From assembly GCF_045037415.1 (NCBI RefSeq), contig NZ_CP173438.1: 64,000 bases of DNA. One strand, written 5' to 3'. Below the pieces are notes generated by a model. The model ran no database searches. It was given only the letters and a program-made list of their open reading frames with translations, and was not told the origin of the DNA. Below are positions 43,265 through 44,543 of this stretch, piece by piece (position 1 is the stretch's first letter; each line of letters starts with the position of its first letter). A program made the position numbers and the translations under genes. This DNA comes from Escherichia coli (GTDB taxonomy: Bacteria; Pseudomonadota; Gammaproteobacteria; Enterobacterales; Enterobacteriaceae).

Positions 43265-43886
43265 GGACAGAAACTGTCTACCGGAATGTGGTCACTCCAC
43301 TTGAGTCGTCTTGCTGTACTCCTTTGGCCAATCCATTTAGCTCTCCAACGTGATGTTTTCAACGGTAACAAAAGTAACAATATAACATGCAGTCATTTCA
43401 ACGATCTCAGTGTTACCACCCATTTTGAGCAATCATATCAAAGTAACAAAAGGGGAATATTGTGTGGTTCATCGCTGAAAGCAGGCTAAGATCACCTGCC
43501 GGCTATGCATATCATGAAAGTGCTAAATGTCCCGTCTTGTTTATCAACCGAGATAAGCTGTAATTGACTGAGTGGCTCCCCTTAATGCTTTTTCTCAATC
43601 AACAGATATGGATGGGACCAGTCAGTGACCTCTTTATATGAAAAAAACCCATCGTGCTCCAGTGCGCAAACGCCCTTATGACTGGCAACGTAATCGTAAA
43701 CAGCCCGGCTTTCCAGTCCCTGTAACATGTGCGAAAGCAGCTTTCGGCGCATCACATCTGACTTCCTGCGTTTACTGTCAACAACGGGTAATAAAGTGAT
43801 CCACTAACCGTCACCACCAACGGTTTAATATTGATCCACCTTGTTTACTCAGGATTAGCTTCAGGTATAACCCCGGCCTTTCGTTT

Positions 43887-44138
43887 CTACTTCAGTCGAT
43901 AGCTCTCTCCTTTTATCTGGACTACGTGTGAGTGATGTAAGATACGGTCCAGCATCGCCGATGTCAGGGCTGCATCCCTGGCGAACGTCTGATCCCACTG
44001 CCCGAACGGCAGGTTGGAGTCCAGGATCATCGCGCTCCTCTCGTAACGTTTAGCGATGACCTGGAAGAACAGCTTGGCTTCTTCCAGACTGAACGGCAGA
44101 TAACCTATTTCATCGATGATAAGTAGCTTCGGGGCCAT
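43887..44138 (-). pseudogene. IS21-family IstB ATPase, C-terminal fragment (IS remnant)
   Basis: 83-aa ORF ...[13 protein letters not shown]...[25 protein letters not shown]...[21 protein letters not shown] matches the IstB C-terminus; no intact istA or N-terminal istB. Confidence 0.75.
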
Positions 44139-44339
44139 GACACCGCGATTGAGTGTCGTTTTGTAACGGCCCTGGCGCTATGAAGTGGATAGCTGTAGCA
44201 GCAGGTCCGCTGTTGTGAAGCGAACCTTGATGCCTGCCCGTAGCGGCGGACGCCCATGGCACAGGTGCCGCAGGCGAGCATGCGTTCAACGGAGAGTCGG
44301 GTCCATTAGCTGATGCTGTCAGCGTATTTTTCGAGGAAT

Positions 44340-44543
44340 TTATGTAAGAAGCGTCAAAATGAAAGCGCCAACTAATAATGACAGAATTAATAAAATACCA
44401 GTAAGCGCGTATGCTATACCTTTTCCAATCTCGTTTTTTATGGTACGTCCAATTGAATAAAGGATTAAAGATACCGATAGCAAAACTATCAAAATAAAAC
44501 CATACACTAACGCTGCAAGTGGGCCTGGGTTACTCATAATCAT
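44340..44543 (-). CDS. hypothetical small membrane protein
   Basis: 67-aa ORF with two hydrophobic helices; coding status uncertain. Confidence 0.3.
   Translation of the reverse strand: MIMSNPGPLAALVYGFILIVLLSVSLILYSIGRTIKNEIGKGIAYALTGILLILSLLVGAFILTLLT

Follow-up and report, generated by a model that had tools for sequence, protein, structure and literature searches.

The segment at positions 43300 to 44340 of a 64,000-nucleotide stretch of an Escherichia coli chromosome, called the window here, is a defunct remnant of island turnover in the ST131 lineage. It is ordinary IS wreckage of low intrinsic interest, and with high probability a scar without function that a series of mobile-element events left in a variable slot of the island beside ychF. 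The small ORF that it contains is the 3′ stump of a 490-codon gene that was broken by an IS21-family insertion. The parent gene belongs to an unannotated family that appears, from conserved residues and predicted structures, to share its fold and catalytic motifs with family A DNA polymerases. The working copy of this family in the island would be a divergent paralog that lies in the same window.

Setting of the segment

Core chromosome, from rssA to pth-ychF, fills the window between position 1 and ∼38,300. An island starts after ychF with a P4-type tyrosine integrase gene at 38574-39749. Homology between this ychF-integrase flank and other islands stops at ∼39794, just ahead of a copy of ISEc24. 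A RefSeq locus of strain SA186 spans the whole window and is 99.95% identical at the nucleotide level, and the RefSeq annotation is blank across 43270-43886. The sequence of the segment is 100% identical in >500 E. coli chromosomes, including O25b:H4-ST131 strains such as EC958. This conservation is uninformative because the genomes belong to one clonal lineage.

The left wall of the segment is formed by the ISEc24 copy, a member of the IS3 family found at 39801..43299 on the plus strand. Its inverted repeats are TGGAGTG... at 39801 and the reverse complement that ends at 43299. The transposase gene is interrupted by a group II intron with ltrA at ∼41218-42725 (+), and the rve domains of the 3′ transposase piece were located with Pfam at 42848-43264. 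The names of ISEc24 and of the intron element were taken from the RefSeq annotation of the identical locus. Relative to strain SA186, ltrA is frameshifted by a 1-nt deletion at ∼42252, leaving ORFs 41203-42297 and 42339-42725; the deletion may be real decay or a sequencing error.

ISEc24 with its intron, an ISSen3-like end and an IS91-family fragment make up a pile of truncated mobile elements that stands between the ychF-side integrase and the remaining island. The initial annotation, made from the sequence alone, had described an IS-decay zone at a junction between island modules. Both descriptions were borne out, since the debris separates the ychF-side integrase from the island remainder, and the zone is richer in elements than had been described. 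Proteins of an ABC-three component system are annotated in the identical RefSeq locus at ∼60268-63783 (-), in the most distant part of the island, and represent a candidate conflict or defense system within the same island.

The small ORF is the 3′ end of a 490-codon gene

An unannotated minus-strand ORF of about 59 codons had been reported at approximately 43564-43743. An ORF is present on that strand, with coordinates that differ by 10-18 nt, and it has 56-57 codons rather than 59. It occupies 43582..43755 (-) and encodes 57 amino acids from a GTG start, or 56 from the ATG at 43752 (the MRRKLL form). The description as unannotated is correct for RefSeq/PGAP, but in several GenBank records of the ST131 lineage the ORF is entered as a "hypothetical protein" (e.g., JJ1886 P423_06780 and BAI54715.1). 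Its length is unremarkable, as the ORF list of the window has dozens of comparable size.

The initial annotation had proposed a BLASTP search and taken a lack of homologs as a point against the ORF. Many homologs were found. The ORF region corresponds to residues 428-490 of 490-amino acid proteins with 90-96% identity (E ∼1e-39), a homology far beyond chance. At the nucleotide level, it is 87.6% identical to the last ∼57 codons of the gene for a 494-amino acid hypothetical protein of E. coli EC2641, and 85.8% identical to the end of the gene for a 490-amino acid protein in isolate LT883142. The LT883142 alignment is gapless to ...GCGTTTAC and breaks exactly where the ISSen3 terminus TGTCAACAACGGG begins. 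The frame is also open all the way to the IS junction, the homologous piece comprising 63 codons and a stop plus 2 bases to the junction (43582..43775 (-), coding to 43773). Since the alignment is uninterrupted and ends at the IS terminus, the ORF is a 3′ stump with an IS21-family insertion at the 43775/43776 boundary. The GTG and ATG of the ORF are internal Val and Met codons of the parent gene (...SDVMRRKLL...). A frameshift at the 5′ end of the stump, suggested by the EC2641 alignment, was rejected because closer homologs show an intact frame to the IS junction.

The stump represents the C-terminal 13% of the parent protein and, of the motifs described below, keeps motif C (LEHDGF) only. 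Its differences from four intact alleles cluster at third codon positions, for example 13/19 against LT883142. This excess indicates that the sequences diverged while the gene was functional and under selection. Of the two changes found in the stump alone, one (V to F) alters a site that is at least 90% conserved in the family.

The stump is followed downstream by a 282-bp orphan spacer at 43300..43581, which is probably the leftover flank of lost cargo. No homolog of the spacer was found outside the ST131-type locus among E. coli genomes, plasmids and fetched loci, and promoter and terminator matches were not above those in shuffled sequences. Two other identities were considered and rejected. 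A retron or other noncoding RNA remnant was dismissed as there is no Rfam match and the RNA fold is not unusual (z-score 0.23), and no homology to the cargo flanks of other islands was found.

The broken end of an ISSen3-like element

The stump abuts the right end of an ISSen3-like element of the IS21 family (43776..44264, minus strand), consisting of a terminal inverted repeat and the 3′ ∼133 codons of istB. The DNA from 43776 to ∼44242 is 94-96% identical to ISSen3. The initial annotation had suggested alignment to IS21-family references as a means of finding terminal repeats, and this yielded one. It opens with TGTCAACAACGGG at 43776 and matches the ISSen3 IRR. From 43776 onward the window reads TGTCAACAACGGGTAA, which is identical to the right terminus of ISSen3 in pSC138, and the left terminus (IRL) of the pSC138 copy is the related sequence TGTTACCAACGG. 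The identical right terminus, together with the related IRL, identifies 43776 as a genuine IS end. The TGT terminus and repeated GATCCAC motifs are common to the remnant and ISSen3.

An IstB C-terminal fragment with no istA had been noted from the sequence, and both parts of that observation are confirmed. The 83-amino acid ORF at 43887..44138 (-) matched the Pfam model IstB_IS21 (PF01695) with an E of 8.9e-38 over profile positions 152-233 of 238. When ISSen3 IstB was used as a tblastn query, residues 121-260 of 260 aligned with 44264-43848 of the window at 89% amino acid identity. The first ∼7 aligned residues are unconserved and true homology begins at approximately residue 128, leaving an istB 3′ piece of ∼133 codons at 43848-44264 (-). 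This piece carries two in-frame stops and lacks one codon. The Walker A motif (GPSGVGKT, IstB residues 110-117) lies beyond the breakpoint and is gone. A tblastn search of the entire 64-kb window gave no match to ISSen3 IstA.

The terminus at 43776 is the only genuine one, a second ISSen3-type end being absent. As only one IS end survives, a target-site duplication cannot confirm simple insertion. GTAACA/CAACGG repeats at 43354-43450 were considered as a second IS21-type end and rejected, because the look-alike at 43354-43380 is similar at only ∼17/27 bases. A 33-amino acid ORF was likewise rejected as a truncated istA start, having no homolog beyond the same locus. In contrast to ISSen3 itself, the remnant is a ∼490-bp end fragment without istA, Walker A or a second end, and its istB contains stops. 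It is an ordinary dead ISSen3 end that is unable to transpose.

The broken istB is abutted by a ∼100 bp fragment of an IS91-family transposase gene at 44240..44340 (-). The sequence at ∼44240-44340 is 86-90% identical to plasmid IS91-family transposase (zinc-binding domain) genes, and RefSeq enters it as a pseudogene fragment. Two hypothetical proteins without a Pfam match are encoded between this fragment and DUF3999. These are WP_001531630.1 (∼65 amino acids, hydrophobic; 44340-44543, minus strand) and WP_001296004.1 (45 amino acids; ∼44696-44833, plus strand).

Fold and motifs of the parent family

The 494-amino acid protein of EC2641 has no match in Pfam, NCBIfam or PADLOC. Its sole match is PHROG 30690, whose function is unknown. 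Approximately 150 close relatives (50-99% identity) occur across the Enterobacterales, none of which is named. A profile search of 1.84 billion representatives, with E up to 1e-3, placed 391 clusters at 50% identity in the family. In an 81-member alignment with ∼20% identity, R271, D298, K341 and E452 are invariant, while H471-D472-G473 is at least 90% conserved.

The family has the right-hand palm and fingers fold of the PolA type. D298 is positioned on a strand that is followed by a helix in the model, and H471-D472 is positioned at a hairpin turn. The modeled geometries of these two sites are those of PolA motifs A and C, respectively. The family profile places K341..LYA...GAG on motif B of Pol gamma (HAKIFNYGRIYGAG) with a non-significant E of 1.8. 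The N-terminal half gave weaker matches to winged-helix proteins. Matches in BFVD were uncharacterised Dickeya and Erwinia jumbo phage proteins, then phage PolAs; the phages concerned include Dickeya phages JA11/JA13/JA29 and Erwinia phage Yoloswag.

A PolA link at the sequence level was rejected. Pfam DNA_pol_A matched 0/81 family members, hhalign of the family against E. coli Pol I returned nothing (probability 0.1%), and PDB profile searches were negative or non-significant. The likeness of the family to PolA is structural and motif-level only.

An intact paralog and the island core

A tblastn search with the island gene identified an intact divergent paralog of up to 465 amino acids at 50066..51463 (-), 6 kb from the stump (E 3.5e-14). 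It aligned with the family profile in hhalign with a probability of 99.8% and an E of 1.9e-30 over 411 columns. D262, K304 and H442-D443 are kept. The AF2 model of the paralog has a pLDDT of 88.2, and a Foldseek search of the PDB with this model returned family A DNA polymerases as the top 50/50 matches, the best being Pol theta (E 1.8e-4). RefSeq gives the paralog only as a 381-amino acid hypothetical protein, WP_033555205.1, that starts at ∼51211. Three observations favor the longer start: the family alignment begins at residue 10, a 462-amino acid homolog has 88% identity, and the N-terminus is modeled confidently. This paralog is presumably the island's working copy of the family.

Using tblastn with island genes, the whole island core module was found on the minus strand of the window. 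It includes DUF2787 (56483-56905), RadC (55448-55918), an integrase (54472-55416) that is 93% identical to that of locus L005, AlpA (53451-53648), and a 284-amino acid protein (52040-52894). The core at 51464-56905 (-), whose tyrosine integrase is of the 309-amino acid type, also contains a 179-amino acid ORF, a divergent 204/208-amino acid gene and a 155/171-amino acid ORF. Pfam or PHROG function is available only for AlpA, the integrase, RadC and DUF2787. Neighboring core proteins (406, 364, 280/284 and 166-208 amino acids) have no Pfam or PHROG function, and homologs of the 284-amino acid protein were too few for modeling. Other copies of the core module are present in E. coli and in enterobacterial contigs from metagenomes or read assemblies. 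The region upstream of the intact genes was examined for iterons or an origin, which were rejected for want of convincing repeats; recent common ancestry accounts for the high nucleotide conservation there.

Downstream of the paralog are a transposase fragment, DUF2339, a frameshifted DUF3999, two small ORFs, the IS debris and finally the stump. The pair of membrane proteins DUF2339 (899 amino acids) and DUF3999, at 45020-49111 (-), is in the cargo position after the intact polymerase-like gene. The frameshift in DUF3999 is that given by the annotation of the identical RefSeq locus.

Intact loci and their cargo

In every intact enterobacterial island locus examined, the polymerase-like gene comes after a core made up of a small tyrosine integrase, a divergent gene of regulator size, AlpA, and one or two unknown proteins. 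A DUF927 protein is sometimes added to this core. Co-oriented cargo lies directly 3′ of the polymerase-like gene and differs between loci. A type I RM system with DUF5655 is found in loci L005-L009 (11619-20086 of L005), and a type I MTase, S, PtuA and PtuB are found in EC2641 and L011 (2186-7862 of L002, the EC2641 locus). LT883142 (L004) carries an St85-type retron with ATPase and HNH at 5318-9043, and L017 carries a 372-amino acid protein and an AAA_15 ATPase at 10320-13239.

In LT883142 and L017, the far side of the cargo is bounded by the same P4-type integrase next to ychF that is found in the window. LT883142, an E. coli isolate, has an intact allele in the same ychF-side slot, between the P4-type integrase and the remainder of the island. 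L017, a metagenome relative, has the 462-amino acid type in that slot, followed by the two-gene cargo, with no IS debris. The gene is fixed while the cargo changes, so the polymerase-like gene acts like the final core gene ahead of an exchangeable defense slot.

Members of the family were also observed beyond these islands. A distant one is present in phage-like metagenome contigs (L012/L013, 8001-9575) near a DnaG-type primase and a clamp-loader-like ATPase, and no canonical DNA polymerase was seen within the 17.5 kb inspected around it. Another distant member adjoins an integrase on a short contig.

Comparison with known polymerases and elements

Several features distinguish this family from known family A DNA polymerases (Pol I/Klenow, Taq, T7 DNAP, Pol theta and Pol gamma). 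The proteins are ∼465-500 amino acids long and have neither a 3′-5′ nor a 5′-3′ exonuclease. The N-terminal half is different, with its winged-helix-like matches, and the Arg that canonically stands four residues ahead of the motif B Lys is missing. No comparable group appears among PolA1-3 in the A-family section of a 2026 survey of bacterial polymerases (PMC12926913). A term search of the 2023 PolA reclassification (PMC10201439), which defines 19 clusters, located no text on winged-helix or integrase-linked forms. We found no literature on this island in ST131 or on a PolA-type island gene.

The closest elements in concept are pipolins, integrative defense islands that encode their own primer-independent PolB (PMC11551731). 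Both have tyrosine recombinases, an excisionase-like AlpA, DUF2787, a polymerase-like gene of their own and a distal slot for interchangeable defense systems. The window and its relatives accordingly have two integrases, DUF2787 and AlpA, along with type I RM, Ptu-like, retron or AAA_15 cargo. The pipolin study lists ychF as an integration site in other phyla, and mentions without description "piPolB-less, pipolin-like islands" with different core arrangements (PMC11551731). The difference lies in the hallmark gene, which is PolB in pipolins and a family A-type polymerase-like gene here; no WYL gene was seen here. The RefSeq annotation of the SA186 locus covering the window, taken as annotation only, lists no B-family polymerase and so no piPolB.

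CP4-57-type islands, PICI/P4-like satellites and PIMEs (bioRxiv 10.64898/2026.01.12.698999) have a similar order of modules, namely int, AlpA, one or two unknown genes, a presumed replication gene and cargo. In the islands described here, the replication position is occupied by a polymerase-like gene and not by a primase-helicase or RepA. The repA, traJ, trbJ and trbL genes of PIMEs were not seen, nor were the capsid-remodelling and packaging genes of satellites.

Possible function of the polymerase-like gene

We suggest that the parent gene would act as the replication or maintenance polymerase of the excised island. A defense or regulatory role is possible. The broader reading is a tentative one, to which we give somewhat less than an even chance. 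It holds that the family is an undescribed clade of active, exonuclease-less family A polymerases with an N-terminal DNA-binding region, and the hallmark maintenance or replication gene of a widespread class of Enterobacterales integrative islands with interchangeable anti-phage systems. Jumbo and other phages would hold relatives of this clade.

A less probable reading, though one with an appreciable chance, is that the family is non-catalytic. The protein would then be a DNA-binding or regulatory protein with a PolA-like fold, or a defense effector rather than a maintenance gene. The failure of every PolA sequence model to detect the family is in keeping with this, as is the constant position of the gene next to defense cargo. 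DUF927 is linked to primase-helicases, and its presence in some islands would make a second replicase seem redundant. However, the three residues of the catalytic motifs are invariant or almost invariant at ∼20% identity, which argues for retained chemistry. The gene is also core-like in that it stays fixed while the cargo varies among type I RM, MTase/S/PtuAB, a retron and the AAA_15 pair, and the family has no PADLOC match. Finally, homologs occur in jumbo phages and in phage contigs beside the DnaG-type primase and clamp-loader-like ATPase.

Origin of the scar and fate of the stump

In the ST131 ancestor, the ychF island would have had a 490-type polymerase-like gene beside cargo, as LT883142 has today. 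An ISSen3-like IS21 element inserted into this gene after codon ∼427. An IS-associated deletion or recombination, marked by the IS91-family fragment, may then have linked the truncated IS to another variant of the island, which would have brought in the 465-type gene with DUF2339/DUF3999. ISEc24 presumably landed at the integrase-side boundary, deleting all but 282 bp of the old cargo, and would have been invaded later by the group II intron. Together, these events would have cost the island istA, the 5′ half of istB, 87% of the polymerase-like gene from its 5′ end, and the downstream cargo, and the later deletions may have taken place in this order.

What remains of the gene encodes the last helix and the motif C β-hairpin of the palm domain. 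With neither the aspartate of motif A nor the lysine of motif B, no polymerase is possible, and the stump is most likely inert. Translation is possible by sequence, as a start codon is kept in the ORF and AGGAAG is found 6 nt upstream of the GTG. Because the stump is directly downstream of the istB remnant and in the same orientation, it might be transcribed from the IS remnant and yield a peptide with a new role, such as interference with the intact paralog. We regard this exaptation as improbable. A weak sigma-70-like site does occur at 43967-43939 (-), but 2 promoter-like sites were found vs 1.2 expected from shuffles. A helix and β-hairpin excised from a palm domain are unlikely to fold alone, the stump is only ∼25% identical to the paralog, and one of its substitutions is at a nearly invariant site.

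Still more remote is the proposal of the initial annotation that the ORF could be an independent small gene, a regulator or toxin-antitoxin component: despite the open frame with GTG/ATG starts, the purine-rich stretch upstream and the label of "hypothetical protein" in some GenBank records, the ORF is the C-terminal 13% of a larger IS-truncated gene, has no Pfam or NCBIfam match (only a PHROG without known function), derives from a family without a PADLOC match, and has no partner, its neighbors being IS fragments and the orphan spacer. The distribution of the ORF points the same way. In its exact-sequence cluster 37/37 members are short (40-57 amino acids) and all those with a name or accession come from E. 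coli, while beyond that cluster the sequence was found only as the C-terminus of 490-amino acid proteins. The initial annotation had also allowed that the ORF might be noise. That description suits it as a non-functional sequence and not as a chance ORF, given that it is the relic of a gene. Overall, that interpretation of the segment is partly supported.

Significance

The 56-57-codon "hypothetical protein" in hundreds of ST131 genomes can be relabeled as a pseudogene fragment. The segment is also a record of the remodeling of the ychF island's cargo slot by four different mobile elements. The lead worth following is the polymerase-like family, of which an intact copy is present in the same window. 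The family marks the edge of a slot for defense cargo and could serve as a hotspot marker. If the reading as an active polymerase-like clade is true, the clade would be the family A counterpart of the PolB-encoding pipolins. An active enzyme would represent a new minimal polymerase type and provide a new hallmark for finding defense islands.
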